DNA of 64,000 nucleotides from Bacteroidaceae bacterium (lineage in GTDB: Bacteria; Bacteroidota; Bacteroidia; Bacteroidales; Bacteroidaceae): assembly GCA_017548165.1 (NCBI GenBank), contig JAFYMW010000007.1:1720-65719 (forward strand), read 5' to 3'. Every line of letters starts with the position of its first letter. Position 1 is the first letter of the stretch. The notes under the pieces were generated by a model. The model did not search any database, had not been told where the DNA came from, and saw only the letters and a program-made list of their open reading frames with translations. The position numbers and the translations under genes were made by a program. Below, piece by piece: positions 1,947 to 54,328 of the stretch.

Positions 1947-1995
1947 TGATAATCTCCTTTACTATTATATTTCGTTGCACTATCTATTTCCGATT

Positions 1996-2012
1996 TCAGC
2001 ATTCAGTTTTCA
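1996..2012 (-). repeat. 7-nt periodic stop array TGAAAAC-TGAATGC-TGAAATC starting at the aroQ stop
   Basis: TCA on the + strand at 1996, 2003 and 2010; the last is the aroQ stop codon. Confidence 0.85.
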
Positions 2013-2432: not shown

Positions 2433-2456
2433 AATATTTCTTTACTTTTGCGACTT

Positions 2457-2464
2457 CAAAGATA
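2457..2464 (-). promoter_or_regulatory. -7 box TATCTTTG (Bacteroidota TAnnTTTG type) for aroQ
   Basis: Reverse complement of caaagata; 25 nt upstream of the aroQ ATG. It is the last unit of the repeat module 2457-2545. Confidence 0.5.
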
Positions 2465-2587
2465 CGATTAAGCGAGCGAAATACCAAATTTGCGATTAAG
2501 TGAGTGCAGAAAATTCTATTTTTATATGCCGAATGGAAGCAAATTCGACCATGAGGTCAAATATATTTAATAAAATCTGAGCGTGAG

Positions 2588-2595
2588 TACCTTTG
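2588..2595 (+). promoter_or_regulatory. -7 box TACCTTTG for xerD
   Basis: Exact TAnnTTTG in the context GAGTACCTTTGAG. Confidence 0.55.
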
Positions 2596-2608
2596 AGATA
2601 TAGTCTCA

Positions 2609-3583: not shown

Positions 3584-3684
3584 CGAGATGTCAAGAGATT
3601 ATAAAAATTGTGTTTTTTACACTTTTTATGACTTTTTTTACTAGAGCACAATATATAACGTACTGATAATTTGCTTTTTTTTCG

Positions 3685-3692
3685 TACCTTTG
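3685..3692 (+). promoter_or_regulatory. -7 box TACCTTTG for the 3740 lipoprotein gene
   Basis: Context TTTTTTTTCGTACCTTTGCAC; 48 nt upstream of the ATG. Confidence 0.65.
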
Positions 3693-3739
3693 CACGCGGA
3701 ATTAGCATAGATGTAATATAAATCACTATTAAAACAACA

Positions 3740-5425: not shown

Positions 5426-5440
5426 TATAAATTTTGAACT

Positions 5441-6394: not shown

Positions 6395-7596
6395 AATACG
6401 AACTGCTCGTTTCTCGCCGATATCTCTTTTCTAAAAAGAGTCACAACGCTATCAACATAGTTTCTTCAATAGCCGTTGTTGGTGTTGCCGTGGCTACTAT
6501 GGCATTGGCGATTGTGATGAGTGTGTTCAATGGGTTTCAAGGTCTTGTTGCCGACCTATTCACTGGGTTTGATCCAGAACTTCGCATAACACCACGACTA
6601 GGCAATAGCATAGACCTCAGCGAAGAGAAAATAAATAAATTAAGACAAAGCAAATCTGTTGCCGTCTTTACCCCCGTAATGGAAGGACAGGCCTTGGTAA
6701 CAGCCGGCAACATACAAAAAGTAATAATGCTAAAAGGAGTTGACGACAACTTTCTTGAGCAATCCAACATACTTGATGCCCTATATGGTGATGCAGAACC
6801 AATATTGCATCTAGATGTACTGGAATACTGCATACCAGGTCTGACGTTATGCAACCAACTTGGACTTCCCCTTTATTTCGACCAACTACTTCAGGTCTAT
6901 GCCCCCAAGCGTGGTGAACGTGTCAATATGGCCAATCCCAAGGCAAGTTTTAACGTCAATGAACTACAAGCATCCGGACTTGTCTTTAACGTGCATCAAG
7001 CCAAATACGATGCAGAATACATTCTGTGCTCTTTGGGATTTGCACAAAGACTTTTTGAACAAGAAGGACGCGCCTCTGCCCTAGAAGTAAAACTTACTCC
7101 AAATGGTAGTCGTAAGGAAATTGAAACCATCCTCGGCAACGATTTCCATATACAAGATCGCTACGAACAACAAGAGGACGTTTTCCGTATCATGCAGGTA
7201 GAGAAACTCATTTCCTACGCCTTTCTATGCTTTATCTTGCTTGTCGCATGTCTCAATATCATTGGCAGTCTGAATATGCTAATCATTGAAAAACGTGACA
7301 ACATAAAGACACTAATAGCTCTTGGTTCCACCTCTAGTCAGATACGACGAATCTTCATGTCCGAAGGTCTTATGATTATTTTTGGAGGTGCCATAACAGG
7401 TATGATTCTCGGTGTTGTTCTATGTCTGCTTCAGCAACATTTTGGATTCATCAGTATGGGGCAAAGCGAAGGGAGTTTCATAATTGACGCATACCCTGTC
7501 GTTGTACATGCCACAGACCTTATCATCATCCTTATCACAGTCCTCCTACTCGGTACCACCAGCGTGCTTTTTGCAACAAGGAAGACATTTTTATAG
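6391..7596 (+). CDS. FtsX-like ABC transporter permease (LolC/E family)
   Basis: 401 aa with an N-terminal TM, a large periplasmic loop and three C-terminal TMs (LISYAFLCFILLVACLNIIGSLNMLIIEKRDNIKTLIALG). ATGA overlap with the upstream gene at 6391-6394. Confidence 0.85.
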   Translation: MKYELLVSRRYLFSKKSHNAINIVSSIAVVGVAVATMALAIVMSVFNGFQGLVADLFTGFDPELRITPRLGNSIDLSEEKINKLRQSKSVAVFTPVMEGQALVTAGNIQKVIMLKGVDDNFLEQSNILDALYGDAEPILHLDVLEYCIPGLTLCNQLGLPLYFDQLLQVYAPKRGERVNMANPKASFNVNELQASGLVFNVHQAKYDAEYILCSLGFAQRLFEQEGRASALEVKLTPNGSRKEIETILGNDFHIQDRYEQQEDVFRIMQVEKLISYAFLCFILLVACLNIIGSLNMLIIEKRDNIKTLIALGSTSSQIRRIFMSEGLMIIFGGAITGMILGVVLCLLQQHFGFISMGQSEGSFIIDAYPVVVHATDLIIILITVLLLGTTSVLFATRKTFL

Positions 7597-12514: not shown

Positions 12515-14029
12515 TTATTGATTTCTGTTGAGTTTCAACATTTCTTCTATATATGCTCTACCATTGGAAAGTCTGGGAACCTTGTGTTGGCCTCCCAACT
12601 TGCCCTTGGAAGCAAGCCAATCGTGAAAAAGTCCTGGTCGAGCCACAACAAGCTCCAATGGCTGAAGCGTGATGTCCTTGTAGCGTTTTGCCTCATAGTC
12701 GGAATTTACTTGCTGTAGTGTTTGATCCAAGATGGTGGAGAAGAGTTGGACATCATCCGGTTTTTTGGCAAATTCCACCAACCATTGATGGCGGCACTTG
12801 CCATCGCCATCCATAAACACTGGAGCTGCCGTATATTCCTGAACCTGAGCACCCGTCTGTCGGCAAGCCTCGGCCAAACCAACTTCGGCATTGTCAACGA
12901 TGAGTTCCTCGCCAAAGGCATTGATAAAAAACTTTGTACGTCCAGTAATAACTATCTTGTATGGATTTAACGAAGTGAAACGTACGGTATCGCCAATCAT
13001 ATAGCGCCAAAGACCACTGGAAGTACTTATCACCATAGCATAGTTCTTGCCCTTCTCCACACCCCACAAAGGCACAACGTGAGGATTAGGGTTCTCTATC
13101 TCATCCATAGGTATGAATTCATAGAATACGCCATAGTCCACCATCAGGCTCATAGACACATCGGAAGGATCGTCTTGAATACCAAAAAAACCCTCACTGG
13201 CATTATACGTTTCCATATAGTGCATATTTGCAGAGGGGATTAATTTCTTATACTGCTCTCTATATGGAGTGAAAGCAACACCACCGTGAAAGAACATCTC
13301 AAGATTTGGCCATACCTCACAGAGGTTATCCTTTCCGGTAATCTCCAATACTCTGGTCATAACAGAGAGCATCCACGAAGGCACACCACTGAGATTGCTA
13401 ACATTCTCATTTATAGCTTCATGGGCTATCCTATCACGCTTTATCTCAAAATCCGACAATAATGCAGTGGATTTCTTGGGCACTCTAACGAGATTTACCA
13501 AAGGATTGATGTTTTCAATAAGAATAGCACTGAGGTCGCCCACCAAAGAATTCTTCAGATTATAATTGGGAGCATGACTTCCACCCAATATAAGTGCCTT
13601 GCCATCAAAAATCCTACTTTGGGGATTATTAGCCAGATACCATGCCACAGCATCCCTGCCACCAGCATAATGCGTATCCTTGAGCGCATCCTTACTTACG
13701 GGAATGAACTTACTCTTGTCGTTAGTCGTACCACTAGACTTTGCATACCATCGTACATGCCCAGGCCACAAAATATCTGTCTCGCCCTGACGCATACGAT
13801 CTATGGCATGCTTCAGGTCTTCATAAGTATTGACTGGCGATGTTGATGCAAAGTCTTCATAACTAAGCAAAGAGGCAAAACCATGCTCTCTTCCCCATTC
13901 AGTATCCTTAGCCTTACTGACCAGCTTCTGGAGCACCTCCATCTGCAGATGCTCTGCCTGACTCTGATATTTGTCCAGCGTCTTTTTTCTCTGCGCAAAT
14001 AATGGACGTAGTATCTGTGTTAGTGCCAT
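12515..14029 (-). CDS. GH3-family (acyl-acid amido synthetase-like) protein
   Basis: 504 aa; AKSSGTTNDKSKFIPVS adenylation motif and overall GH3 'auxin-responsive promoter' family layout. Confidence 0.8.
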   Translation of the reverse strand: MALTQILRPLFAQRKKTLDKYQSQAEHLQMEVLQKLVSKAKDTEWGREHGFASLLSYEDFASTSPVNTYEDLKHAIDRMRQGETDILWPGHVRWYAKSSGTTNDKSKFIPVSKDALKDTHYAGGRDAVAWYLANNPQSRIFDGKALILGGSHAPNYNLKNSLVGDLSAILIENINPLVNLVRVPKKSTALLSDFEIKRDRIAHEAINENVSNLSGVPSWMLSVMTRVLEITGKDNLCEVWPNLEMFFHGGVAFTPYREQYKKLIPSANMHYMETYNASEGFFGIQDDPSDVSMSLMVDYGVFYEFIPMDEIENPNPHVVPLWGVEKGKNYAMVISTSSGLWRYMIGDTVRFTSLNPYKIVITGRTKFFINAFGEELIVDNAEVGLAEACRQTGAQVQEYTAAPVFMDGDGKCRHQWLVEFAKKPDDVQLFSTILDQTLQQVNSDYEAKRYKDITLQPLELVVARPGLFHDWLASKGKLGGQHKVPRLSNGRAYIEEMLKLNRNQ

Positions 14030-14834: not shown

Positions 14835-16100
14835 TCAGTCAACGTACTTCTTGAAGATGACACAAGCATTGTGGCCACCAAAACCGAAGGTGTTGCTTAA
14901 TGCAGCTCGCACCTCACGCTCTTGTGCCTTATTGAATGTGAAATTCAACTTGTAGTCAATCTCTGGATCCTCGTCACCCTCTTCATGATTGATAGTTGGA
15001 GGAACGACATTCTCCTTTATAGACATCACGCTAGCCATGGCCTCAACAGCTCCGGCGGCACCCAACAGATGACCTGTCATAGACTTGGTGCTGCTGATAT
15101 TGAGGTTGTAGGCATGCTCGCCAAACAACGTTTTGATGGCCTTAATCTCGCTGACATCGCCAACAGGAGTACTGGTACCATGCACGTTGATATAGTCAAT
15201 ATCCTCGGGTTGCATACCTGCATCGTCCAAAGCATTCTGCATTACCAGCACTGCACCCAATCCCTCGGGATGAGAGGCTGTGATGTGGTGTGCATCGGCA
15301 CTCATACCAGCACCCACCATCTCTGCATATATCTTGGCACCGCGTGCCTTGGCATGTTCCAGTTCTTCAAGAATCAGACAAGCTGCACCTTCGGCAATAA
15401 CGAAACCATCACGGCTGGCACTAAAGGGACGGCTGGCAGTTTCGGGACTTTCATTGCGTGTGCTCAATGCATGCATGGCGATAAAACCACCTACACCGGC
15501 TGTGGTAATTGCCGACTCGGCACCACCGCTGAGAACAATGTTGGCCTTACCAAGACGAATCAAATTGAAAGCATCCGCCAAGGCTGTTGTACTGCTGGCA
15601 CAAGCGCTTGAGGTGATATAATTGGGACCATGAAAACCATACTTGATACTTATGTGTCCAACACAAATATCTGCAATCATCTTTGGCACGAAGAAAGGAC
15701 TGAACTTAGGACCTACAGCATCTGCGGTCTTTGCATATGCTGTCACTTCCTCTTCAAAGGTTTTCATGCCACCGATACCCACACCCATTACCACACCAAC
15801 GCGGTTCTTGTCTAATGCATCAATATCCATTGCGCTATCCTCTACCGCCATCTGTGCGGCTGCCAAGGCATAGTGACAATATGGGTCCATCTTGCGTGCT
15901 TCCTTGCGGTCAATGTACATGTTTACATCAAAGTCCTTGACCTCGCAAGCAAACTGGGTTTTAAATTTCTCTGTATCGAATCGTGTTATAGAAGCAGCTC
16001 CGCTGACACCAGCCAGCATATTCTGCCATGTCTCCTCGGCAGTATTGCCGATGGGGGTTACAGCACCTAAACCTGTAACTACAACTCTCTTCAATTCCAT
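14835..16100 (-). CDS. fabF: beta-ketoacyl-ACP synthase II
   Basis: MELKRVVVTGLGAVTPIGN...; active-site contexts SSACASS, NVHGTSTPVGD and GHLLGAAG. I trimmed the track ORF (to 16148) to the conserved start at 16100. Confidence 0.95.
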   Translation of the reverse strand: MELKRVVVTGLGAVTPIGNTAEETWQNMLAGVSGAASITRFDTEKFKTQFACEVKDFDVNMYIDRKEARKMDPYCHYALAAAQMAVEDSAMDIDALDKNRVGVVMGVGIGGMKTFEEEVTAYAKTADAVGPKFSPFFVPKMIADICVGHISIKYGFHGPNYITSSACASSTTALADAFNLIRLGKANIVLSGGAESAITTAGVGGFIAMHALSTRNESPETASRPFSASRDGFVIAEGAACLILEELEHAKARGAKIYAEMVGAGMSADAHHITASHPEGLGAVLVMQNALDDAGMQPEDIDYINVHGTSTPVGDVSEIKAIKTLFGEHAYNLNISSTKSMTGHLLGAAGAVEAMASVMSIKENVVPPTINHEEGDEDPEIDYKLNFTFNKAQEREVRAALSNTFGFGGHNACVIFKKYVD

Positions 16101-35754: not shown

Positions 35755-35923
35755 CACACGATTTAAATAACATGTGGATAGATTTGGGCTGCTTGCAACC
35801 ACAGAAAAAAATGCTAAAATAAAAGTTCTGCTCTTCGTGCCATACGGACAGGACTTTGACGCATTCCGCCCTATTTCTTTCCCCATACATTATTAATTAA
35901 TAACTTATTTAATTATTAAAACT

Positions 35924-37183
35924 ATGGGTTACCTTTTTACTTCAGAATCCGTTTCAGAAGGCCATCCCGACAAGGTGGCAGACCAGATCAGCGATGCCGT
36001 TTTAGACAAAATCCTTGCATTCGACCCCGAATCAAAGGTGGCATGCGAAACTCTCGTAACCACTGGTCAAGTGGTTCTTGCTGGTGAAATCAAAACACAG
36101 GCCTATGTTGACCTACAGCGCATTGCCCGCGAGGTGATTAACCGCATAGGTTACACCAAGAGCGAGTATATGTTCGAGGGCAATTCATGTGGCGTATTCA
36201 GTGCCATCCACGAACAGAGTGGCGACATCAACCGTGGTGTAGAGCGCGAAGAGCGCGAGAACCAAGGTGCAGGCGACCAGGGTATGATGTTCGGTTATGC
36301 CACCAACGAGACAGAGAACTACATGCCCCTGAGTCTTGACCTGAGCCATCGCTTGTTGCGCGTACTGGCCGACATACGCCGCGAGGGCAAAGTAATGACC
36401 TATCTGCGCCCCGACTCCAAGAGTCAGGTTACCATCGAATATAGCGACGAGAACGTGCCTGTGCGCATAGACACCATTGTGGTGAGCACCCAGCACGACG
36501 AGTTTGCAAGCGACGAAGCCATGCAACAACAGATACGCCACGACGTAATCAATATTCTCATACCTCGCGTCAAGGAGACAATCACAAGTGATAAGATATT
36601 GGCACTCTTCAACGACAATATCATCTATCATGTGAACCCCACTGGCAAGTTCGTCATCGGTGGTCCTCATGGCGATACAGGTCTTACCGGCCGCAAGATT
36701 ATCGTAGACACCTATGGTGGCAAGGGTGCACACGGTGGTGGTGCATTCAGTGGCAAGGATCCCTCTAAGGTAGACCGCTCTGCAGCATACGCTGCACGCC
36801 ACATAGCCAAGAATTTGGTTGCTGCAGGTGTGGCAGACGAAATGCTGGTACAAATTTCATACGCCATCGGTGTGGCAGAACCTGTAAGCATCTGTGTAGA
36901 CACCTATGGTCGCTCTAAGGTACAGATGACCGACGGTGAGATAGCCGATAAGATTAAAGGCATATTCGATCTTCGCCCCTATGCTATAGAACAACGTCTG
37001 AAACTTCGCAATCCCATTTACGAGGAGACTGCAGCCTATGGTCATATGGGTCGCGAACCTCAGGTAGTGACAAAGACCTTCGACTCCAACTACAATTGTG
37101 GCAAGAAAACCATAGAGGTGGAGCTCTTCACCTGGGAGAAACTCGACTATGTAGAGCAGGTTCGCAAGGCTTTCGGCTTGTAA
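35924..37183 (+). CDS. metK: methionine adenosyltransferase
   Basis: [48 protein letters not shown]. Confidence 0.97.
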
Positions 37184-45195: not shown

Positions 45196-45237
45196 GTGTT
45201 TAGCGTTTAGCGATGAACGGTGAGAGATGAACAGTGA
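45193..45237 (+). repeat. stop-codon array after mutS (TAG x2, then TGA x4 at 7-nt spacing)
   Basis: TGA stop at 45193; TAG at 45201 and 45208; TGA at 45214, 45221, 45228 and 45235. Confidence 0.85.
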
Positions 45238-45332
45238 GCTCACCCCACCTTTGAGAACATCCACCTTTCTTCATAGCGGGGGTACCCAAAACGCGGGAGA
45301 TCCTCTTTGTTCCCACACCTGAAAACGCCAAT

Positions 45333-45353
45333 GGTTTACGGTTTACGGTTTAC
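45333..45353. repeat. GGTTTAC x3 perfect heptamer repeat
   Basis: Read directly from the sequence. On the minus strand it gives TAA every 7 nt. Confidence 0.95.
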
Positions 45354-45484
45354 AGTTATTATTTGCGCTATTTGTTGCACCAGCTCAGTTAGCTCAGTTT
45401 CAGTTTAAATTCTGCACACAGCACTGTTTGGGAACCTGTTCGGAAAAGATTATATGAATATGATAATATTTACTAAATAATTAG

Positions 45485-45508
45485 TTATATTATATATATA
45501 TAATATAA
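45485..45508. repeat. perfect 24-bp A/T-only palindrome
   Basis: TTATATTATATATATATAATATAA equals its own reverse complement. Confidence 0.95.
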
Positions 45509-45555
45509 AATTTTTATGTAGGAGCATAGGGAGGGTATGATGGTAAAATAGGATA

Positions 45556-45606
45556 ACTGACTGCTTTAGCTTGATGGGCGAATGCGACGACTGCTTTAGC
45601 TTGATG
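45556..45606 (+). repeat. two 30-nt-spaced copies of (GA)CTGCTTTAGCTTGATG
   Basis: 45561-45576 and 45591-45606 are identical 16-mers. Confidence 0.9.
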
Positions 45607-45739
45607 AACCTTGGTGAGTAATAATAATACTGAAACTGAGCTATCTGAGCTACTAAAACAAAAGGAAGGCTGCGGGTAGGCGTCATTATTTTTCGCAAAT
45701 AAGACCACTCTATCACATTTAGAATTGTCCCTATGCAAC

Positions 45740-46010
45740 CAGATCATAATCCAACCTCTACACCCTCTCTTGTTGAGCACCTATCCTCCTGATAATCAAC
45801 ACTAAACCGCCCCCAAACTGGCCATTCACACCCCAAAACCTATCACCTTCCACCCCCAAAAACACCCTCTTTCACCCCTCGACATATCGTCCACACCAAC
45901 GCGCCACATTGCCAAACCCCACGCACCACATCGTCCCACTCCACACAAAACACCGCCCCACCCCACACAACACTACGATTCCCAGACCCAAAACACCCAC
46001 TTTTACTTGT
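45740..46010 (+). other. C/A-rich, G-depleted tract (G-rich on the minus strand)
   Basis: My count is about 15 G in the 230 nt from 45781 to 46010. The 60-nt line starting at 45841 is 29/60 C. CCCC(A)n words recur. Confidence 0.9.
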
Positions 46011-46037
46011 CATGATTTTTTACCAACACAACAAATA

Positions 46038-46100
46038 CAAAGGTATTCGGTACTCAGTATTCAGTTATGGATTTGGGGCGAAAAGGAACTATCATCTGCA
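46038..46100 (+). repeat. direct repeat copy A (downstream flank of the five-gene cluster)
   Basis: CAAAGGTATTCGGTACTCAGTATTCAGTTATGGATTTGG ... TATCATCTGC. Confidence 0.8.
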
Positions 46101-46210
46101 CCTCGATTCCTTCCGAAAGCTGTTTCCGAGTCTCGTCCCTCGCCTCTGCATTCACCTTTCTTCACGAATCTCGCCCCCTATTTGCTTAGGATGTATGAGC
46201 GGAGCTCATT

Positions 46211-47977
46211 TTAGCGTTGTGAAACTGGGAGAAGGAGGCGGAGGCCATGGGAGTAAAAGCGGGCACCAGAAAGGCGGCAGCCACGGGCAGAGACACGGCT
46301 ACCCTTGGGTTCAAAGTACCAACAGCCACCGCGCATCACACGCTCGACGCCAGAATCACGCCCCTGCGGATTGACTTGAGGAGAGTTGGAATAGTAGTTT
46401 TTTGAATACCAATCCTGGCACCATTCCAATATATTACCACTCATATCATACAAACCCAACTCGTTAGGCTGCTTGGTGGCGACTGGATGAGTTTTTCGAT
46501 CGCTATTTTCTGCATACCAAGCCACTGAACCCAAATCGTTGCTCCCACTATATTTATATCCTTTACTCTTCTTGCCTCCACGAGCTGCATACTCCCATTC
46601 CGCTTCTGTGGGCAGACGGAAGTTGGCTCCTGTCATGGCATTTAGCTTCTCTATGAAATTTTGACAATTCTTCCATGAAACATTATCTACTGGGAGATCA
46701 TCTCCCTTGAATTTCGACGGATTTTTACCCATAACAGCCGTCCACAGGGCCTGTGTCACTTCGGTTTTGCCTATGCAGAAATCGCTCAGTGTTACATTGT
46801 GTACTGGTTTCTCATCATCATAAGATTCGCTTCCTTGCTCGCTGGTTGCACCCATCTTGAAGGTTCCTCCCTCGACAAACACCATCTCGAACGACACACC
46901 ATTGACCGTAAAAGTGCGATTGTCAGTAGATAATCCCTCCTCAAGCTTTGCCACCTCTGTTTCAGTTTCTCCCTCGGTAATAGTAATAGTTTTGATGTAG
47001 CTTTGGAAACCATTTTTTATCACCTTTATCTCGTGCTCGCCAACGAGGCATTCGGACAGGAACAAGGGCGTGGTGCCGACTTGCTTGCCGTCGAGCCACA
47101 CCTCGGCATCGGCGGGGGAACTATTGATATCGAGCGAACCATAAATGGGTGTTGGGGGGACAAGGGGGATGGGGGTGCTGGCATTTTCTGCGCTTATCAC
47201 TATCTCCTTCTGCGAGGCTCTGTGACCAGGCAAACGGCATTCCACCACATAGGTACCATAACCCAATTCGATAGTGCAATTGCCTGTGCCCTGCTTCTTA
47301 TCGTCAATCCATATCTCGGCATTGTTCTCGACCTGGAATTGGACGTTGGCAAACTGAGGACGGAGATTGACGGTGACGATGTGCTTGTTCTTGGGGTCGT
47401 TGACCACAATGGTTCCCACCTCTGGGGCATGGCGTGGTGCCTGGATGCGGTAGTTGTATGTACCGAAAGGCATGCGCTTGGTGGCAGTACCACCTATTGT
47501 TTCGATGGCCTGTCCGTCCAACTCGACAAAGGCATTGGCTGGAGTAAGACGGAACAATACATATTGCGAGGTGACGGCATTGGTGACAATGGTGCGAACC
47601 TGTCCGGAGATAAGCTTCATCTGGTAGGTGCGAGCCTTGGCGATGGGCACGGGAATGCTGTATTCCAAGCGTTCGAACACAGGATGCGACAGCACTATCT
47701 TCTTGATACCGAAAGGCACATAAACCCATATCTCGCCCACCTTCTGCTCTGTCTTCACCACTCCCAAAGAACCAACATCAAAACTGAAACCAGTCTCGGT
47801 GGTGAATATCTTGATCAGTGCACACTTCTCGCCATTCTGGTCCAAAACAGTAGTCCCAGCAAGATTGGACGTCAAATCGCTCTCGTCAAGCTTAAAGTAT
47901 TCCACAGACACCTTCTGGGAATAAAGTGAAAGCGAGGAAATGAAGAAAAATACGTAGAGAAATAGTCGTTGTAACAT
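46211..47977 (-). CDS. secreted PEGA-repeat protein with C-terminal SUMF1/FGE-sulfatase-fold domain (paralogue 1)
   Basis: Signal peptide ...LSLYS|QK. PEGA-type repeat INSSPADAEVWLDGKQVGTTPLFL. FGE-fold blocks FEMVFVEGGTFKMG, FRLPTEAEWEYAARGG, YDMSGNILEWCQDWY, RVMRGG...GLRLL. Confidence 0.8.
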   Translation of the reverse strand: MLQRLFLYVFFFISSLSLYSQKVSVEYFKLDESDLTSNLAGTTVLDQNGEKCALIKIFTTETGFSFDVGSLGVVKTEQKVGEIWVYVPFGIKKIVLSHPVFERLEYSIPVPIAKARTYQMKLISGQVRTIVTNAVTSQYVLFRLTPANAFVELDGQAIETIGGTATKRMPFGTYNYRIQAPRHAPEVGTIVVNDPKNKHIVTVNLRPQFANVQFQVENNAEIWIDDKKQGTGNCTIELGYGTYVVECRLPGHRASQKEIVISAENASTPIPLVPPTPIYGSLDINSSPADAEVWLDGKQVGTTPLFLSECLVGEHEIKVIKNGFQSYIKTITITEGETETEVAKLEEGLSTDNRTFTVNGVSFEMVFVEGGTFKMGATSEQGSESYDDEKPVHNVTLSDFCIGKTEVTQALWTAVMGKNPSKFKGDDLPVDNVSWKNCQNFIEKLNAMTGANFRLPTEAEWEYAARGGKKSKGYKYSGSNDLGSVAWYAENSDRKTHPVATKQPNELGLYDMSGNILEWCQDWYSKNYYSNSPQVNPQGRDSGVERVMRGGCWYFEPKGSRVSARGCRLSGARFYSHGLRLLLPVSQR

Positions 47978-48010
47978 GAATGATATATGTATGGTGCGTA
48001 TGTATGGGGG

Positions 48011-49576
48011 TTATTGCCAAAGTTCTACCTTGGGAGATTCGGTTTGGAATTGGGGCATGCAGACGCCTATCTCGGCATCGACATAGGTGGGGTCGCAGAT
48101 AATGTATTTCTTGTCGTTATAGATATATGCATCGCCATCTACAGAGTTGTCTGTAAAGTTGATGGCTGTACATTCATGACCAGGGAAGTGCACCAGATGA
48201 ACATCCAGGCCCAGGAGGTTGTGCACCAGATAGGCATAGAAGATGGAGCGGTCCTCGCAATCGTTCTGGGGGTAGTAGAAATTCTCCTCCAGGAAATAGG
48301 GCTTCTCATAGCCGTGCTGCTCGTCGTCGGTGGCATAGCCAAAGGCATGCTGAACAAAGTGAATCAACTTGTTTGCTGCATCCTTTTGCGAAAGTCCCTG
48401 AATCTGTGGTCGTATCTGCTCCAGGAGATCCTTACGGAAGGCAGGCACAAGGTTGGACTTGGCATACTCTGGAATATCGGTCTGGGGATAGTGTCTGAGC
48501 ATCTCCATAAGGTTCTCGTTTACCTCGCCCTGAACAGTTATCACACCATCCGTCAGGGTACGCTGTATGGCTTTGCCCGAGTTGACACCTGTATTGTTGA
48601 GAATCAGACTAAGCCCCTTGCCACAATCCACATTGTTGGGCAGGTTGCAGGTGTATATTCCCTCGTTCTTCATGCGTCTGCTATCGTCATTGAAAAACAA
48701 GAAATACTTCTTATTGTCCATAGTCAGATATTCGCGTCCATAGACCATCTCCTCGAACGGAATCAAGAGGAAGAGCCTGTTCTCTGTTCTTGCCAGACGC
48801 ACATCGTACTTCATATTTGCCAGGATATAGTGCTGCAATATCACTTTGTCGAAATCGCTGGCATTTGACAAGGCAGAGTTGACATAGGCACGAACCAATC
48901 TGAACCTGAACCAATCGTTGAAAACATATTTTACCGCCAAAGCATTCAGATGTTCTATCAGCACCTTGGTGTCCTTGTTGTTATAGAACTTCCATGCCTT
49001 GCCATAGGCATCGTTTGCATTGGGAGTGAAGGTATAAGCCTTGACCTTGGGAGCCTGCAACAACATGCCATAGAAATCAAAGTCGTGCATATTCTCGGCC
49101 TTTGGAGCAGGTGCAGGGGTTGGAGTTGGAGTAGGAACTGTTGGCACCGCAGGAACCTTGGGAGTCTGGGGTGTTGCAGGAACCTTGGGAGTTTCCTTGA
49201 CAGGAGACGCAGGAGGAGTCACTACGGGCTTCTCCTTGGCAGGGGTCTCGGGAGTCTCGGGGTTCTTTGGTTTCTCGGGTGCCTTCACCGTCTCTGGTTC
49301 TGGTATTACCACAGGAGCCGCAGGCTTCTCCACAGCCTTGGGGAGTGTTGCTGGCTTGGGAGTGTTGTCACGCTTGGCAACCTTAAATTCATCATACCTC
49401 TTCCACACACCATCGAGATATTGGGCATAGTCGTCAAGTACCGACTTTCTGAAACCCTGATACCTGCCCAGCATACCCTGTCTGAACTGCTGAAACGAAT
49501 CGTCCGTTCCCTGAGCAAAAATGGTGTTGGAACAGAAGAATATAAAGAATAGAGAATAAGCTAGACGGTATTTCAT
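48011..49576 (-). CDS. secreted protein: ~90-aa Pro-rich linker + C-terminal transglutaminase-like (Cys-His-Asp) fold
   Basis: Signal ...TIFA|QG. Pro-rich run PKPATLPKAVEKPAAP...PTPTPTPAPAPK. The C-terminal pattern NDCEDRSIFYAYLVHNLLGLDVHLVHFPGHECTAINF...YIICDPTY mirrors the transglutaminase-core C / H / D arrangement. Confidence 0.55.
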   Translation of the reverse strand: MKYRLAYSLFFIFFCSNTIFAQGTDDSFQQFRQGMLGRYQGFRKSVLDDYAQYLDGVWKRYDEFKVAKRDNTPKPATLPKAVEKPAAPVVIPEPETVKAPEKPKNPETPETPAKEKPVVTPPASPVKETPKVPATPQTPKVPAVPTVPTPTPTPAPAPKAENMHDFDFYGMLLQAPKVKAYTFTPNANDAYGKAWKFYNNKDTKVLIEHLNALAVKYVFNDWFRFRLVRAYVNSALSNASDFDKVILQHYILANMKYDVRLARTENRLFLLIPFEEMVYGREYLTMDNKKYFLFFNDDSRRMKNEGIYTCNLPNNVDCGKGLSLILNNTGVNSGKAIQRTLTDGVITVQGEVNENLMEMLRHYPQTDIPEYAKSNLVPAFRKDLLEQIRPQIQGLSQKDAANKLIHFVQHAFGYATDDEQHGYEKPYFLEENFYYPQNDCEDRSIFYAYLVHNLLGLDVHLVHFPGHECTAINFTDNSVDGDAYIYNDKKYIICDPTYVDAEIGVCMPQFQTESPKVELWQ

Positions 49577-49633
49577 AAGGTATTATTTTTTTTGGGGGGA
49601 GTTAGAGGTAGATTTATTAAATGAGCTTCCTAA

Positions 49634-51397
49634 CTAATGTTGTAGCACAGGCAGGCACAGGCGCAGACCGAAACTATTGCTTCTAATCTCAGGTTTGCTA
49701 TTGCCACGGAAAGACACGCGACAACTCTTGGTGTCGTCGCCACCACCACCACCGCGCAACACACGATAGTCGCCAAACGTGGGTCCCATGGGATTGGTCT
49801 GTGCATCGTTGGCATAATTGCCATACCAGTCATTGCACAATTCCCATACATTACCGCTCATATCATAGATGCCCAACTCATTGGGTTGCTTGGAGGCTAC
49901 GGGATGCATCTTGCTCTTGCTGTTGGAGTAAAACCATGCCACAGAAGGCAGGGTGTCGTTTCCGGAATAGATATAACCCTTGCTATTCTTACCGCCACGA
50001 GCAGCATACTCCCACTCGGCTTCGGTGGGCAGACGGAAATTGGCACCAGTGACCTTGTTAAGTTTCTCTATGAAAACCTGGCAATCCTCCCACGACACAC
50101 TCTCCACGGGCAGACTGTCGCCCTTGAAATGCGAAGGATTCTTGCCCATCACGGCCTTCCACATAGCCTGAGTAACCTCGGTCTTACCTATATAGTATTC
50201 ACTCAGAGTGACACTGTGCACTGGCACCTCGTCGCTCGAAGCAGCATTTCCCTGCTCGCTGGTGGCACCCATCTGGAAGGTTCCTCCCTCGACAGGAATC
50301 ATCTCAAAAGCAACATCCTTGACTTTGAAGATACGCACACCATTAGAGAAACCCTTCTCCAGGTTGATCATAGCGTTCTCGGTCTTTCCCTCTGATATGG
50401 TCACTGTCTGGGTATAATCGCTATATCCCCATTTGGTAATCTTGATGTTATACTCACCGATAAGGCAGTTGGACAGGAACAAGGGTGTGGTACCCACCTG
50501 CTTGCCATCTATCCACACATCGGCATCGGCAGGATGACTATTGATATCCAAGGAACCATACACTGGTATGGGCTCTTTAAGAACTAGGGGCACATTAACA
50601 GCATTTTCGTCGATGACCACCTCCAGCTGCGAAGGACTATGACCAGGCAAACGGCACTCTGCCATATATGTACCATAACCCAATTCCACGAGGCAAGAAT
50701 CCTTGCCATACTTCTTATTGTCAATCCATATCTCACCATTGTTGGGAGCATAGAACTTGACATTGACAAACTGAGATTCGAGCTCGATATTCACAACGTG
50801 CTTGTTCTTGGGGTCCTTCACCTGCACGGTACCACTTTGGGGAGTGTGGCGTGGAGCATGCACACGATAACTATAAGAACCAAATGGCAAACGCTTGGTA
50901 GCAGTGCCATCATATACTTCAACAATTTCTCCCTCAAGCTCAACAACAGCATTCGCTGGGATTACACGAAACAGCACATACTGCGATGTTACGGCCTGTT
51001 TAACGATAGTCTGTATCTCGCCTGCTGTAAGTTTCATCTCATAAGTGCGAGCCTTCTGGATATTAACAGGAAAGGCATATTCCAAACTGCCCAAATGCTT
51101 GTGGCGTATCTTTATCTTTCTCACGCCATGAGGCACATACACCCACACCTCGCCAGTCTTGTACTCTACCTTGCTTATGCCCAGCGAACCCACATCGAAG
51201 GTGAAGTCGGAATGTGTGGTCTCTATTCGGATAAGGGCACACTTCTCGCCGTTCTGATCAAAGACAATGGTACCCTGCTGGTTGGCGGTGAGATCGGTTT
51301 CATTCATTTTGAACGACTCCACAGACATCTTATTCTGCGCAACAGCCATCAGTGCAGAACAAAGGAACATCAAAAGAAAAAGGATTCTATTCTTCAT
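49634..51397 (-). CDS. secreted PEGA-repeat protein with C-terminal SUMF1/FGE-sulfatase-fold domain (paralogue 2)
   Basis: Collinear with 46211..47977 over the whole length. By eye, identity is roughly 60% overall and above 70% in the FGE-fold part. Signal ...MAVA|QN. Confidence 0.8.
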   Translation of the reverse strand: MKNRILFLLMFLCSALMAVAQNKMSVESFKMNETDLTANQQGTIVFDQNGEKCALIRIETTHSDFTFDVGSLGISKVEYKTGEVWVYVPHGVRKIKIRHKHLGSLEYAFPVNIQKARTYEMKLTAGEIQTIVKQAVTSQYVLFRVIPANAVVELEGEIVEVYDGTATKRLPFGSYSYRVHAPRHTPQSGTVQVKDPKNKHVVNIELESQFVNVKFYAPNNGEIWIDNKKYGKDSCLVELGYGTYMAECRLPGHSPSQLEVVIDENAVNVPLVLKEPIPVYGSLDINSHPADADVWIDGKQVGTTPLFLSNCLIGEYNIKITKWGYSDYTQTVTISEGKTENAMINLEKGFSNGVRIFKVKDVAFEMIPVEGGTFQMGATSEQGNAASSDEVPVHSVTLSEYYIGKTEVTQAMWKAVMGKNPSHFKGDSLPVESVSWEDCQVFIEKLNKVTGANFRLPTEAEWEYAARGGKNSKGYIYSGNDTLPSVAWFYSNSKSKMHPVASKQPNELGIYDMSGNVWELCNDWYGNYANDAQTNPMGPTFGDYRVLRGGGGGDDTKSCRVSFRGNSKPEIRSNSFGLRLCLPVLQH

Positions 51398-51432
51398 TTC
51401 GAGGATATATATATTATAATATGTGTGTCAGG

Positions 51433-53289
51433 TTAAAAATCACCAGGACCATACAGACCGAAATTGGGGTCCTTGTCGGGTTGCCATGTGCGCACCTTGA
51501 TAATGGGCTTCTCGGGATCGTTGATGTCCACAATCAGGAACAGATAACCCTTATCGCCATAGGTTGTGGAGTAATAGTCCTGTGCTATCTGTATAGCATA
51601 TAGTTCACCTCCCTTGGCCAGCTTGATGACATCGTTGTTGGCAAAACGGATGTTGATGTATTCCTGACTGCCAAAACACTTCTTCAGATTGTCCAGATAC
51701 TGGTCCTTGGTGTATCGGTTCTTTTTGATGATAGTATTGTTGCTGGTGGTTGCCACTCCGGTTTCGGGGTTGATGGTCATCTTGGCCTGACGCACAATAT
51801 TACCCACGATTATCACAGCATCGTCGTCGAAGATGGACCTGATATAGTCCAGACGCTTCAGACCATAGGCTGTCTTGTAGTTCTCCAAGAAGTTCATTAT
51901 GCTCAGTCGTGCCTGTTCGCTCCATACACCCTTGTTCAGGATGTCGTCGGCAGCTGTGTTGCCCAGACCGAAAGCCAGGTTATAGATAAGACCCTCTTGG
52001 TTGAAGGAGAAGACAATATCCTCGACAAACGACTTTCTCAAACCGCGCTGGAACGAGAACGACATCTGCACGCCACGACCTATGACATAGTCACCATTCT
52101 TGTAAAACTGCATTGATGGAGTGCCTACAATCTTTGCCTTGCCATATCGTACTATCTTCTGATATATGTCCCAGCCCTCTTGGGTGAAGTGCTGCTTGAC
52201 GGCATCATAGTTAAGAGTTCGGATAGAATTGAGAACAGAATCCACCACCTTGCTATATGCCGCGCTATCTGCTACCTGCGTTGGCGCCTTCTTAATCTCT
52301 GCAGCAGTAGTGGAGAAGGACGATGTCGACTGACACTGCATAGAAGTAGAAGTAGTCTGACCCTGCACAGATGTAGCTGCCGCCTGGCTATCCTCTACGG
52401 CTTGCAGGTTGGCATAAGCACCACGCATAGGAGTGCTCTTGACAACATTCAGTACAGATTCCAGTTCGCGGTCGATCTGAGCCTGTCCGCGATACTCAAA
52501 CTCGAACTTCAGCTGATATGTCGCGCTGGTGTTTCCTGGGGCAAGTTCCAATACGCCACGGCCATCCTTGGCACTATATATATTGCTCCATCCACGACCA
52601 TCAAAATAGGTGTAGTCCACACTATTGACAGGTTTGTCCTTATAGGTTATATATAATTCCACATCGTCGCCATTGCGCTTTACCACACTGGCAGACATAC
52701 TTTGGAACACATCGTTCATCTTTTCGGGAATCCATACAGTAAGCATATGTGCCTGTCCATCTTCATCTGTATATGAAACCTCGTTGGGGCGCTGCAAGGA
52801 TTTCAGCAGAGTCAGCGCCCAATAATAGTTGCGCAAAGCATCATCGGCCTTGCCCTTCGCCTCTGCCTTTATGGCTGCCTCAACCATCGTCTGGACCTTG
52901 GCTATTCGAGAAGCAAAGATTTTCTCTATCTCGGCACGCCTTATCCATCTGCCCACATGAGCATCAGGCTCGTTCTGGATGATAACACGCTCGGTATTGG
53001 TCAACGTAGCCTGAGAGTATGTGTGAACAGAAGACGAAAACTGCGACACCTCGTCCAGTTGTCCATTGGTAATGGTTGAATTGTCCTTGTTTTCCGATGT
53101 AGAAGATATATTTACAGCAATCTTGCTGATCAAGGCTGCCAGAGCCTGCTTATCCGCTTCATCTATGGAATTTCCCCATCCCTCTCCGTATAAATATTCT
53201 GTAGTATTATTTTTTACACTCTCCCAACTCTGTGCAGAGAGGAAGAGTGTAAAGAATGATGCAAAAGATATAACTATTAATCTTTTCAT
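51433..53289 (-). CDS. secreted protein with LPP20-like N-terminal domain and large uncharacterised C-terminal region
   Basis: Start set at MKRLIVISF (53289). Signal ...FLSA|QS. YLYGEGWGNSIDEADKQALAALISKIAVNISS resembles the LPP20 lipoprotein fold (tentative). There is a Ser/Thr/Gln-rich linker in the middle. Confidence 0.5.
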   Translation of the reverse strand: MKRLIVISFASFFTLFLSAQSWESVKNNTTEYLYGEGWGNSIDEADKQALAALISKIAVNISSTSENKDNSTITNGQLDEVSQFSSSVHTYSQATLTNTERVIIQNEPDAHVGRWIRRAEIEKIFASRIAKVQTMVEAAIKAEAKGKADDALRNYYWALTLLKSLQRPNEVSYTDEDGQAHMLTVWIPEKMNDVFQSMSASVVKRNGDDVELYITYKDKPVNSVDYTYFDGRGWSNIYSAKDGRGVLELAPGNTSATYQLKFEFEYRGQAQIDRELESVLNVVKSTPMRGAYANLQAVEDSQAAATSVQGQTTSTSMQCQSTSSFSTTAAEIKKAPTQVADSAAYSKVVDSVLNSIRTLNYDAVKQHFTQEGWDIYQKIVRYGKAKIVGTPSMQFYKNGDYVIGRGVQMSFSFQRGLRKSFVEDIVFSFNQEGLIYNLAFGLGNTAADDILNKGVWSEQARLSIMNFLENYKTAYGLKRLDYIRSIFDDDAVIIVGNIVRQAKMTINPETGVATTSNNTIIKKNRYTKDQYLDNLKKCFGSQEYINIRFANNDVIKLAKGGELYAIQIAQDYYSTTYGDKGYLFLIVDINDPEKPIIKVRTWQPDKDPNFGLYGPGDF

Positions 53290-53380
53290 ATCGTTCAATA
53301 TGAATGTCTGTGCATTCAATAGCAACGTCTAAGGCAAACATCATAGGAAATGCCTCAGACTCATCTGGAAAATAAACAAG

Positions 53381-54019
53381 TTACTTGGCTCCCTGCTCGA
53401 AACCTTCTCTAACGAATGAACTTACCTTCTCGGCATACTTCTGGGCTGCCTCGCTCTCCTTCAGTGCATTCTCATAAGCTCTGATGCGAGCCTTTGTTGC
53501 TGCATCCTCGTTGATGATGAAATACACCTGCATGGTCTTTTCACCATTGCCCAGTTCGCGATAAATAGCGTATGACTCTATCATCTCACCCTTGATCTCC
53601 TTCTCAACGAGAGTCTCGTATGCAGCATAGAATTTGTCGAACTCCGACTCGGTATTATCACCATCAGATGCCATATCGCCTACAATACGACCCTTGACAT
53701 GACTACCTGCGCTACGTGCATAGGTGTTGCAAGCATTGTTTATAGCAGCCTGATGACCAACGTTGTCCGACTTGTACTTGGCACAAATACCAACAATCTC
53801 GTAACCATTTTCACCAAGTGTCTCCAACTTGTCGTAGTGCTTCAACAGAGCAACATCAAGACTTCTTGAAGAAGCAAAAAGCTTCCAACCCTCTTTCTTG
53901 TACTGCTTCATTTTTGCCTTGTACTCCTTCTTCAGCGCCTTTTCCATAGCCTTACTCTGAGCATTAACCACAGGCACCATCAAAACCAGTGCCAACAGGA
54001 ACATGATAATTCTTTTCAT
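53381..54019 (-). CDS. small secreted LPP20-like protein
   Basis: Start set at MKRIIMFLL (54019), 53 nt downstream of the TATATTTG box at 54079-54072. Signal ...VVNA|QS. GHQAAINNACNTYARSAGSHVKGRIVG resembles the LPP20 family (tentative). Confidence 0.5.
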   Translation of the reverse strand: MKRIIMFLLALVLMVPVVNAQSKAMEKALKKEYKAKMKQYKKEGWKLFASSRSLDVALLKHYDKLETLGENGYEIVGICAKYKSDNVGHQAAINNACNTYARSAGSHVKGRIVGDMASDGDNTESEFDKFYAAYETLVEKEIKGEMIESYAIYRELGNGEKTMQVYFIINEDAATKARIRAYENALKESEAAQKYAEKVSSFVREGFEQGAK

Positions 54020-54071
54020 AACATTTAGATTTTTGAATTGATAATATGTTATAAGTTTTGTAAATTCTTGG

Positions 54072-54079
54072 CAAATATA
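54072..54079 (-). promoter_or_regulatory. -7 box TATATTTG for the five-gene cluster
   Basis: Reverse complement of caaatata; 53 nt upstream of the ATG at 54019. It is the only such box between the U32 terminator and the first cluster gene. Confidence 0.55.
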
Positions 54080-54174
54080 AGCATTTTGTATTAAAAAGTC
54101 GAAAAAACACATAAAATTTGTTAGATATTACAGGATTTAGATTATAATGTGTACGATTTCTAATTATTTTTTAG

Positions 54175-54243
54175 CAAAGGTATTCAGTACTCAGTTATGG
54201 ATTTTGCCTTATTTATCCCTTAAAAACACAGCATATCATCCGC
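54175..54243 (+). repeat. direct repeat copy B (upstream flank of the five-gene cluster)
   Basis: CAAAGGTATTCAGTACTCAGTTATGGATTTTG ... TATCATCCGC. Relative to copy A it lacks one 7-nt unit. Confidence 0.8.
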
Positions 54244-54268
54244 TCTACATCATGTAGGGCAATAAAAA

Positions 54269-54296
54269 AGGAAACCTCAGTGGTGCGAGGTTTCCT
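54269..54296 (-). terminator. intrinsic terminator after the U32 peptidase gene
   Basis: AGGAAACCTC - 8 nt - GAGGTTTCCT. On the minus strand it is followed by TTTTTTATT. Confidence 0.8.
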
Positions 54297-54328
54297 TTTA
54301 TGATTATATGGGTGGGAATTGGTGTTTC

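Follow-up and report, generated by a model that had tools for sequence, protein, structure and literature searches.

Five consecutive genes on the minus strand of the window (the whole 64,000-nucleotide stretch of Bacteroidaceae DNA analysed here) constitute a member of a widespread, undescribed family of exported-protein gene clusters in gut Bacteroidales. The cluster encodes three unannotated core proteins (E, D, and B), one of which has a protease-like fold, and two non-enzymatic binding proteins (A and C) with a highly variable tip. We tentatively read it, with a probability of about 0.4, as an exported scaffold and a tethered cysteine enzyme that would serve variable-headed binding proteins. 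The sequence-only reading of this DNA had proposed an undescribed system, and our searches agreed: no known system or paper covers this cluster, and no PADLOC defence model matched any of the five proteins.

The ORF list confirmed five consecutive minus-strand ORFs in the order E, D, C, B, and A, at the coordinates given to them by the sequence-only reading. Gene E (53381–54019, 212 aa) starts at ATG 54019 according to a 46-sequence homologue alignment (A3), and gene D (51433–53289, 618 aa) starts at ATG 53289 according to an alignment of its homologues. These genes are followed by C (49634–51397, 587 aa), B (48011–49576, 521 aa), and A (46211–47977, 588 aa). The intergenic gaps of 33–57 nt described earlier hold for D–C (35 nt), C–B (57 nt), and B–A (33 nt); with the aligned starts, however, the E–D gap is 91 nt. 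A TAnnTTTG box (TATATTTG, 54072–54079, minus strand), a candidate −7 promoter element, lies 53 nt 5′ of the conserved E start. This box had been noted as the only one upstream, but a second box (TACCTTTG, 54175–54182) ends the upstream copy (54175–54205, minus strand) of a direct repeat of ~31–38 nt, whose downstream copy (46038–46075, minus strand) begins 136 nt past the stop codon of A. No such flanking copies are expected by chance. Within the cluster, no TAnnTTTG box was found on the minus strand; since ~1.3 boxes would be expected there by chance, this absence is not significant. Terminator-like matches within the cluster were at chance level (10 versus 8.1 expected). The upstream boundary is the intrinsic terminator of a U32 peptidase gene (54261–54298, minus strand), a hairpin (ΔG −18.5 kcal/mol, z −5.85) followed by a U-run, and this strong hairpin sets the cluster apart from upstream transcription. 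Housekeeping genes surround the locus. By inspection, all five proteins carry the N-terminal signals that had been predicted for them, each a hydrophobic stretch ending in A/S and followed by Gln; these signals appear to fit the signal peptidase I 'Q-rule' of Bacteroidetes (PMC5837995).

B consists of an N-terminal helix, a Pro-rich spacer (49103–49369, minus strand; ~residues 70–158), an alpha/beta middle domain, and a C-terminal Cys-His-Asp domain (48014–48439, minus strand). The spacer corresponds to the ~90-aa Pro-rich linker already seen in this 521-aa protein, and residues 100–154 are disordered in the AlphaFold model (pLDDT 80). The B family comprises 3304 representatives at 50% identity and has a conserved Gln-rich N-terminal helix; Cys440, His467, and Asp495 of B are invariant in 67 homologues. 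The proposed transglutaminase core was borne out by the predicted fold and this triad but not by HMM searches, in which no Pfam model, transglutaminase models included, matched B. The modelled C-terminal domain is predicted to resemble LapG, transglutaminase, and PNGase, at a weak E-value: the best Foldseek match was LapG (4fgp; probability 0.96, E 0.06, ~155 residues only), and further best matches were TG2, PNGase, Rad4, and vasohibin. LapG is a bacterial transglutaminase-like cysteine protease in the LapA/LapD/LapE adhesin-release system. Like LapG, B is exported, possesses a Cys-His-Asp domain, and is encoded beside candidate adhesin-like proteins. Unlike LapG, it shows no membership at the sequence level and has extra N-terminal, Pro-rich, and middle domains. 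The cluster contains no LapD-type c-di-GMP receptor, RTX adhesin, or type I secretion pore, and B occurs in Bacteroidales, whereas the Lap system belongs to Proteobacteria.

D and E had both been considered LPP20-like. For D this assignment is borderline: Pfam LPP20 scored 25.3 bits, just under the cut-off of 25.9, the match to PDB 4kzs ('LPP20 lipofamily protein') had an E-value of 0.002, and among the matches listed for its more than 3000 homologues, PF02169 was precomputed for 18 of 120. The LPP20-like N-terminus of D is followed by a helical hairpin, a beta-sandwich, a disordered Ser/Thr/Gln linker, and an NTF2-like C-terminal region, modelled as two tandem NTF2-like domains (AlphaFold pLDDT 80). 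D also matched Pfam Cds6_C (NTF2-like) weakly and retrieved NTF2-like folds in Foldseek with a probability of 1.0. Thus resembling LPP20/FlgP/LpoB proteins at its N-terminus, D differs from them in having no lipobox and in its added beta-sandwich and NTF2-like domains. E, in contrast, showed no detectable kinship with LPP20 and no match to PDB, Pfam, or D. It is exported by an N-terminal signal, as judged by inspection, and has a Lys-rich N-terminal helix; its 2052 homologue clusters are all 'hypothetical' and have no Pfam match.

Relatives of B were found in at least 581 genomes at species level, and these belong essentially all to Bacteroidales. We surveyed the neighbourhoods of 80 species-level B loci. 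E was the most constant partner of B, lying within 10 kb of it in 51 of the 80 loci. The arrangement E-D-B or E-B recurred in 52 of them, with flanking genes that differ between families, and 26 had E-D-B as a core. Conservation thus concerns E-D-B, or only E-B, and the PEGA/FGE genes are variable accessories: PEGA, FGE, or BACON genes accompanied E-D-B in 19/26 loci, and their number and order varied among the 80 loci. Seven of the 26 E-D-B loci had none of these genes and 28/80 B loci (16 short solo B and 12 others) had no E within 10 kb; therefore, the partnership is not obligatory. The N-terminal module of B co-occurred with E (counts 47/11/2/13, Fisher p 2e-6, phylogeny ignored). The accessory genes of S. 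copri-type loci encode surface proteins, namely BspA-type LRR proteins with sorting domains for type IX secretion (T9SS). A survey of Bacteroidales had been proposed to see whether the five genes co-occur in this order; homologues are co-localised in many genomes, but the five-gene order is not conserved. The sequence-only reading had also named outcomes that would speak against it (failed domain calls, homologues scattered and never co-localised, or separate transcription with unrelated expression), and none of these was encountered.

In a second, Muribaculaceae-type architecture (22/80 loci), E-B is found with secreted TPR-caspase, WD40 propeller, CHASE2, and DUF4384 proteins. This arrangement argues for an extracytoplasmic surveillance or conflict system, in which the variable heads would sense foreign molecules (for example toxins, host factors, or proteins of phages) and B would be the protease that acts as effector or signal generator. 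Its counterpart would be the bacterial caspase modules in which FGE, WD40, or TPR sensor domains are fused to the protease. Caspases fused with FGE-sulfatase, WD40, TPR, and CHASE2 have been described (PMC3501461), the same accessory domains surround E-B in the Muribaculaceae-type clusters, and in both cases a cysteine protease is placed beside putative sensor domains. Diversification by a retroelement (DGR) in one relative and the AbiEii or RloB genes near some relatives' loci point in the same direction. However, the five proteins have no PADLOC counterpart, the window locus lies amid housekeeping genes, and the cluster has neither an output domain reaching the cytoplasm nor a toxin-like effector. 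Unlike orthocaspase systems, it encodes no caspase but a transglutaminase-like protease, and all its parts are extracytoplasmic. We regard this explanation as somewhat unlikely.

A structural envelope scaffold is an unlikely reading of the cluster. In it, D, as an LPP20/LpoB/FlgP-type protein, and possibly E would assemble into a lattice or ring in the periplasm, beneath the outer membrane, with B cross-linking it as a transglutaminase and the PEGA proteins serving as structural layers instead of receptors. The LPP20-like N-terminus of D is consistent with this, as are the Lys-rich N-terminus of E and the Gln-rich helix of the B family. In Bacteroides finegoldii, moreover, a B homologue is located beside two clearer LPP20 proteins (46.5 and 25.8 bits), an LpoB-like protein, and DUF6175. 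Yet a structural role leaves unexplained the hypervariable lectin-type heads, DGR targeting, and the swap of D for caspase and WD40 genes; a lipobox is absent, and transglutaminase over protease chemistry is not established for B. A mere adjacency of five genes without common function would accord with the unfixed gene order and with the many B genes found alone or without E. It appears quite improbable given that E-D-B and E-B recur across families with differing flanks and that the window genes share one strand, gaps of 33–91 nt, and a terminator bounding the upstream side.

A and C are collinear paralogues, as had been described, with 61% identity over 588/587 aa, and Pfam recovered both PEGA (E 5e-22 and 5e-21) and FGE-sulfatase domains (E 1e-49 and 5e-48) in them. 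The conserved N-terminal domain of C (~105 aa) is common to 59/59 PEGA-type ORFs of related loci. The earlier comparison of the C-terminal domains with FGE or GldJ/GldK/PorK holds for the fold, but the closest type is TvpA of Treponema denticola, the best solved relative of the A head (2y3c, E 2.8e-37; FGE 1.6e-23; PorK 2.5e-11). In an alignment with S. coelicolor FGE, 'RGGSYLCH' pairs with 'RGGCWYFE' of A, showing the first catalytic Cys to be absent, and the copper-binding cysteine pair of FGE is missing from the A and C heads. Both heads have a non-catalytic, C-type-lectin-like FGE-sulfatase fold. A gliding/T9SS role of the GldJ/GldK/PorK type is very improbable: the fold is shared and NCBIfam GldK gave an E-value of 7e-26, but this identity is contradicted by scores (91 and 53 bits) that fall well short of the cut-offs (350 and 458), by a PorK match far weaker than that of TvpA, and by the lack of a lipoprotein cysteine and of any por or gld gene within 10 kb. 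That A and C act as genuine formylglycine-generating enzymes maturing sulfatases, despite the Pfam E-value of 1e-49, is almost certainly wrong, since the FGE cysteines are missing, no sulfatase gene is nearby (as already noted), and PEGA-FGE proteins without catalytic function are already recognised as a class (PMC5915273).

The heads contain variable-region-like segments in C (R545–L580, 49658–49765, minus strand; scaffold RVxRGG...CRV..R...GLRL, with hypervariable positions between the scaffold residues) and A (R546–L581, 46235–46342, minus strand). Among 29 family members, the FGE domain varies most in this segment, around a conserved RVxRGG...CR...GLRL scaffold, and the segment occupies the same position as the DGR variable regions in a relative, L008. 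L008 carries a true DGR, in which a reverse transcriptase and template repeat target four FGE-domain genes of its cluster and every mismatch sits at template adenines. That DGR targets can carry PEGA domains was reported earlier (bioRxiv 10.1101/2020.04.01.020958). A and C share with DGR-diversified TvpA the RVxRGG...CR...G(L/F)RL scaffold with hypervariable positions, and their homologues in L008 are real DGR targets. In contrast to these systems, the 64-kb window contains no reverse transcriptase, template repeat, or DGR accessory gene, the A and C heads are identical across four same-species contigs, and A and C are not lipoproteins and share a conserved cluster with E, D, and B, a setting not previously described for DGR targets. 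In L011, a same-species contig, the N-terminal three-quarters of C (the part of the gene upstream of ~50090 in the window) has given way to a divergent allele; such a replacement would be expected if the protein is exposed and under diversifying selection. Some PEGA-type proteins of related loci that bear the N-terminal handle end in an autotransporter beta-barrel (30.7 bits, cut-off 26), which points to outer-membrane anchoring. The cluster in the window encodes no such barrel, no T9SS sorting domain, and no lipobox, so that A and C are at most putatively surface-exposed and may be retained in the periplasm.

In our preferred reading of a scaffold with a tethered cysteine enzyme, all five proteins would be exported via Sec and signal peptidase I. 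The constant core is E and B, with D added in Prevotellaceae and Bacteroidaceae, and D and E would form a periplasmic or outer-membrane scaffold. The N-terminal helix of B would dock onto this scaffold and hold the transglutaminase/LapG-like domain on its Pro-rich spacer. A and C are accessory 'stalk-and-head' proteins: a conserved handle at the N-terminus is followed by beta-sandwich repeats of the PEGA type and by a non-catalytic, TvpA-like head with a C-type-lectin/FGE fold and a hypervariable binding face. B would cleave or cross-link these stalk proteins and so control their maturation, anchoring, or release, and the heads would take variable ligands, for example glycans or proteins from phages, other bacteria, or the host.

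The analysis supports viewing the minus-strand genes at 46211-54112, encoded in the order E, D, C, B, A, as a conserved, exported, and functionally linked gene set in which an unannotated core is joined by accessories that are variable-headed binding proteins. ORF calling in the window recovered all five reading frames where the sequence-only reading had placed them: genes A (46211-47977) and C (49634-51397), which are PEGA/FGE-sulfatase paralogues, gene B (48011-49576), which encodes a Pro-rich protein with a Cys-His-Asp domain, gene D (open frame 51433-53325), and gene E (open frame 53381-54112), which encodes a small exported protein. Homologue alignment placed the conserved start of D at ATG 53289 (618 aa; identical from there to the database protein P0121) and that of E at ATG 54019 (212 aa), the E family consensus beginning with MKKII. 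With these starts, the E-D, D-C, C-B, and B-A gaps are 91, 35, 57, and 33 nt, respectively. By inspection, all five proteins carry the predicted N-terminal signal peptide, a hydrophobic signal whose last residue is A or S and after which comes Gln (...LYS-QK in A, ...IFA-QG in B, ...AVA-QN in C, ...LSA-QS in D, and ...VNA-QS in E), and none of the five has a lipobox. Substrates of Bacteroidetes signal peptidase I show this pattern (PMC5837995).

The TAnnTTTG box reported upstream of the cluster is present at 54072-54079, but it is not the only one, since a second lies at 54175-54182. No such box was found on the minus strand inside the cluster, which weighs little because only ca. 1.3 would be expected by chance. 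Terminator-like matches inside the cluster were at chance level, and no Rfam family was found in or adjoining the cluster. A strong hairpin with a U-run (54261-54298; dG -18.5 kcal/mol, z -5.85) terminates the U32 peptidase gene that lies upstream. Therefore, the cluster is probably under its own promoter.

A direct repeat of ca. 31-38 nt flanks the cluster (54175-54205 and 46038-46075, both on the minus strand; AAATCCATAACTGA[A/G]TACTGA...TACCTTTG). It contains TACTGAR heptads and has a TAnnTTTG box at its end, and no copies are expected by chance. The repeat is restricted to same-species contigs; a search of metagenomes with its motif gave a single chance match, within an MFS transporter gene. 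Possible origins are the duplication of a promoter or operator, or insertion of the cluster, which would have left an att-like scar. Between the stop codon of A and the convergent mutS lies ca. 1 kb of non-coding DNA (45196-46210), with a G/T-rich stretch (minus strand) at ca. 45800-46010; neither an Rfam match nor a convincing ORF was found in it, and transcription into it could start at the downstream copy of the repeat. Within ca. 10 kb, the cluster is surrounded by metK, a LOG-like gene, DUF4271, hemD, acetyl-CoA hydrolase, mutS, and U32 peptidase genes, together with dusB, sufE, M28 and M19 peptidase genes, an AsnC regulator gene, a PP-loop protein gene, and gcpE. A SAM-II (long-loop) riboswitch (35768-35827, 60.6 bits) is located directly 5' of the S-adenosylmethionine synthetase gene (35924-37183), which is an ordinary arrangement.

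The domain assignments of A and C, which share 61% identity over their full length, held in Pfam searches for both the FGE-sulfatase domain (PF03781; E 1.1e-49 for A and 4.9e-48 for C) and PEGA (PF08308; 78 and 74.9 bits, respectively, against a gathering score of 20.8). The nearest solved structure to the C-terminal domain, or head, of A was by a wide margin TvpA (2y3c, E 2.8e-37); bacterial FGE (1.6e-23), human SUMF1 (ca. 5e-14), and PorK (2.5e-11) matched more weakly. In FGE, the catalytic, copper-binding cysteines (human C336/C341) lie in the motif GGS-x-x-C-x-x-x-x-C. When 'RGGSYLCH' of FGE was aligned to 'RGGCWYFE' of A, the first catalytic Cys position was Phe in A; A has neither cysteine of the pair, and C has the second position only. 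No gene for a sulfatase substrate was found within ca. 10 kb. A and C are thus not formylglycine-generating enzymes, because the catalytic cysteine pair is missing. Identity with the gliding/secretion proteins GldK/PorK or GldJ was likewise ruled out: A and C scored 91.4 and 73.1 bits with NCBIfam GldK (cut-off 350) and 53.3 and 45.4 bits with GldJ (cut-off 458), neither has a lipobox cysteine, and no porL/M/N or gld genes occur within 10 kb. NCBIfam PvdO and EgtB also scored far under their cut-offs. Non-catalytic FGE-fold proteins with PEGA extensions were known earlier with no function assigned, and this is an acknowledged open question (PMC5915273).

Two features of TvpA-type proteins, a C-type-lectin/FGE fold and a C-terminal variable-region scaffold, are present in A and C. 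TvpA itself is a variable protein of Treponema denticola diversified by a diversity-generating retroelement (DGR), and non-catalytic FGE/C-type-lectin binding heads are preferred DGR targets. In 29 FGE-domain proteins from the clusters, the scaffold RVxRGG...CRV..R...GLRL is retained over the final ca. 40 residues, and the positions between the scaffold residues are the most variable of the domain. One related locus, L008, contains a complete DGR (HRDC accessory gene, reverse transcriptase, and template repeat, 5145-6816) inside a related cluster, with variable regions in four FGE-domain genes (1362-1513, 4905-5059, 13875-14015, and 15304-15349). Its template repeat follows the reverse transcriptase gene, every mismatch between it and the main variable region is at a template adenine, and the variable region is the same segment as the C-terminal scaffold region of A and C. 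No B gene was found in the 17 kb of L008 that were covered. PEGA domains on DGR targets have been mentioned earlier (bioRxiv 10.1101/2020.04.01.020958).

A DGR acting from within the window was ruled out: the 64 kb contain no reverse transcriptase and no template repeat, and the 3' ends of A and C matched only each other when compared with the whole window (73% over 74 nt). Reverse transcriptase occurred in 1 of 92 loci, namely L008, and tblastn with this protein gave no match in the window or the 91 other loci. Ongoing diversification of the heads was not supported either. The variable-region-like segments of A and C were identical in four same-species contigs (L009-L012), a small sample possibly from related samples. 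Three of these (L009, L010, and L012) showed 100% identity to the window over the cluster stretch that each covers, and L011 differs only by an allelic replacement in gene C upstream of ca. 50090, with its heads unchanged. The L011 allele (1948-3921, against 49634-51397 in the window) encodes 657 aa with an extra PEGA repeat; its N-terminal three-quarters are divergent, while the DNA from ca. 50090 onward is almost identical, and this indicates recombination inside gene C.

In both A and C, the first ca. 105 residues of the mature protein make up a conserved N-terminal domain, here called the handle, which was present in all 59 surveyed PEGA-type ORFs (E ca. 1e-50) and absent from the stand-alone FGE proteins of the survey. 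In the commonest clusters with the E-D-B core, the product of the first gene starts with the handle, continues with two PEGA repeats, and ends in an autotransporter beta-domain (30.7 bits; cut-off 26), which argues that at least one member of the family is anchored in the outer membrane.

B gave no match in Pfam, NCBIfam, or PDB sequences except in its Pro-rich low-complexity region. The transglutaminase-like core proposed for it was borne out by triad and fold, but the window protein has no Pfam Transglut_core match. The triad, C440 (NDCEDR), H467 (PGHEC), and D495 (CDPT), was invariant in 67 homologues. In the AlphaFold model (pLDDT 80, pTM 0.77), the Pro-rich spacer is disordered and an alpha/beta domain forms the C-terminus. 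Foldseek matched this domain best to LapG (probability 0.96, TM to target 0.46), and its top matches also included TG2, PNGase, Rad4, vasohibin, and menin; we take all six to be transglutaminase-like fold proteins. The E-value of the LapG match was only 0.06 because ca. 155 of the 521 residues of B align. Among the 67 homologues, Pfam found DUF553 in four (best E 0.006) and Transglut_core in two (best E 0.099). Unlike the Lap adhesin-release system, neither the cluster nor its relatives contain a LapD-type receptor, an RTX adhesin, or a type I secretion pore. The B family comprises more than 711 clusters at 90% identity and 3304 representatives at 50% identity, and at least 581 species-level genomes carry a relative.

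The LPP20-like character proposed for D and E fared differently in the two proteins. The N-terminus of D scored 25.3 bits with PF02169 (LPP20), just under the gathering cut-off of 25.9, its family profile matched the 'LPP20 lipofamily protein' 4kzs (E 0.002), and precomputed PF02169 matches occur on 18 of the 120 D homologues listed; the N-terminal likeness is borderline. The lipobox Cys is absent, the family consensus at the end of the signal peptide being ...AQxWES. Besides the N-terminus, the model of D (pLDDT 80) contains a helical hairpin, a beta-sandwich, and a disordered Ser/Thr/Gln linker; the C-terminal region matches NTF2-like folds and in the model may be read as two tandem domains. 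The D family exceeds 3000 clusters. For E, the LPP20 assignment was not borne out. Pfam gave no match with E itself and a faint FlgT_N match in 2 of 46 family members, a PDB profile search found nothing, and hhalign of E against D gave a probability below 1%; profile comparisons thus gave no signal for E as a paralogue of the D N-terminus or of LPP20. The 221-aa gene adjoining E in one locus (L001) was also considered as an E paralogue, and no relation was found. The E family comprises 2052 clusters at 90% identity.

To survey gene neighborhoods, ORFs were called in 80 species-level and 12 metagenomic loci and labelled by profiles from the window proteins. The 80 retained loci came from Prevotellaceae, Bacteroidaceae, Muribaculaceae, Paludibacteraceae, Alistipes, and a few bins labelled as non-Bacteroidales, which are probably mis-binned. 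Nearly all members of the B, D, and E families were named 'hypothetical protein'. The five genes had been suggested as a set to be sought in this order in other genomes: E-D-B does recur, but the full order (E, D, PEGA-FGE, B, PEGA-FGE) was found only in the same species (L009-L012), with close variants in L007, L078, L084, and L092. Type I clusters, with E-D-B in the window order, accounted for 26 of the 80 loci. Their companions, located upstream, downstream, or interleaved, were PEGA proteins (17 loci), FGE-domain proteins (12), and BACON proteins (11), and the commonest form was PEGA-barrel, BACON, FGE, (u221), E, D, B. Seven type I loci, that of Segatella copri among them, were without PEGA, FGE, and BACON genes; in two of these (L071 and L031), the upstream genes encode proteins of the BspA-type LRR or CHB_HEX kind that carry T9SS sorting domains. 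What looked like a fusion of D and B in L073 arose from a masked N run. In 16 loci, a short B lacking the N-terminal module stands alone.

Type II clusters, in 22 of the 80 loci (Muribaculaceae and relatives), encode, in this order, CHASE2, an unknown 281-aa protein, a WD40 propeller, a TPR-caspase, DUF4384, E, and B, each with a signal peptide or membrane anchor. In the example of L077 (1002-11452) and 21 similar loci, the caspase domain is Peptidase_C14 and all parts appear to be extracytoplasmic. The caspase, WD40, CHASE2, and DUF4384 partners suggest the main rival explanation, that the cluster is an envelope surveillance system, as do the documented bacterial caspase fusions to FGE, WD40, TPR, and CHASE2 domains (PMC3501461). 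PADLOC anti-phage defence models matched 0 of the 5 proteins, and we regard this explanation as rather unlikely.

In Bacteroides finegoldii (L094, NZ_OY725910.1, 93830-101055), the genes preceding a full-length B homologue encode an LpoB-like protein, DUF6175, a protein of 625 aa whose N-terminus is of the LPP20 family, an LPP20 protein of 193 aa, and a hypothetical protein; a U32 peptidase gene lies a few genes off, which is also the case in the window. With its LPP20 and LpoB content, this version suggests that the cluster might be a structural scaffold, an explanation that we consider improbable. A search of plasmids and phages gave this one B. finegoldii record and one 'Bacteriophage sp.' contig, and no evidence for mobility. 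NZ_OY725910.1 is labelled as a plasmid, yet it carries housekeeping genes and looks like a chromosomal fragment; the other record, MT839828.1, is a 4-kb unannotated contig from human faeces, probably a bacterial fragment that was misclassified, and the B-like protein that it encodes shows 36.7% identity over residues 194-517.

Together, the surveyed architectures show that what stays constant is B, accompanied either by E or by LPP20-type proteins. The N-terminal module of B co-occurred with E (47/11/2/13, Fisher p 2e-6), a test that is not phylogeny-independent because the short B proteins form one clade. In our preferred reading, to which we assign a probability of roughly 0.4 as a whole, D and E would together build a scaffold, located either in the periplasm or at the outer membrane. 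The N-terminal helix of B would dock the enzyme there, an idea that derives from the co-occurrence of this module with E, and the Pro-rich spacer would let B reach its substrates. The Cys-His-Asp domain might then cleave or cross-link the stalk proteins A and C, whose TvpA-like heads would bind variable ligands.

More broadly, we tentatively propose, while regarding it as doubtful, that E-B, with either D or the secreted caspase/WD40/CHASE2/DUF4384 set, is the chassis of an unrecognized Bacteroidales-specific envelope system of hundreds of gut species, in which a tethered extracytoplasmic cysteine enzyme is combined with interchangeable recognition modules, some of them DGR-diversified. If so, it would be a programmable device for surface recognition or envelope immunity, for which no counterpart has been described. 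That the cluster constitutes a separate system of its own is similarly a speculative claim. It resembles two known kinds, variable lectin-fold proteins and LapG-like extracytoplasmic cysteine enzymes, and the folds of its parts, PEGA-FGE proteins, and PEGA-bearing DGR targets are already known. Our literature search found nothing on the E-D-B or E-B core, its association with PEGA-FGE proteins, or the caspase architecture.

Prevotellaceae, Bacteroidaceae, and Muribaculaceae dominate the gut communities of mammals, yet the three core families E, D, and B are without any annotation. The cluster joins three themes that are usually studied apart from one another, namely non-catalytic FGE/C-type-lectin heads, transglutaminase/LapG-like extracytoplasmic cysteine enzymes, and the caspase-associated domain set. 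If the core processes or displays variable binding proteins, it would assign a role to the many PEGA-FGE proteins (PMC5915273) and offer a genetically tractable handle on how gut Bacteroidales vary their recognition of hosts, phages, or neighboring bacteria.
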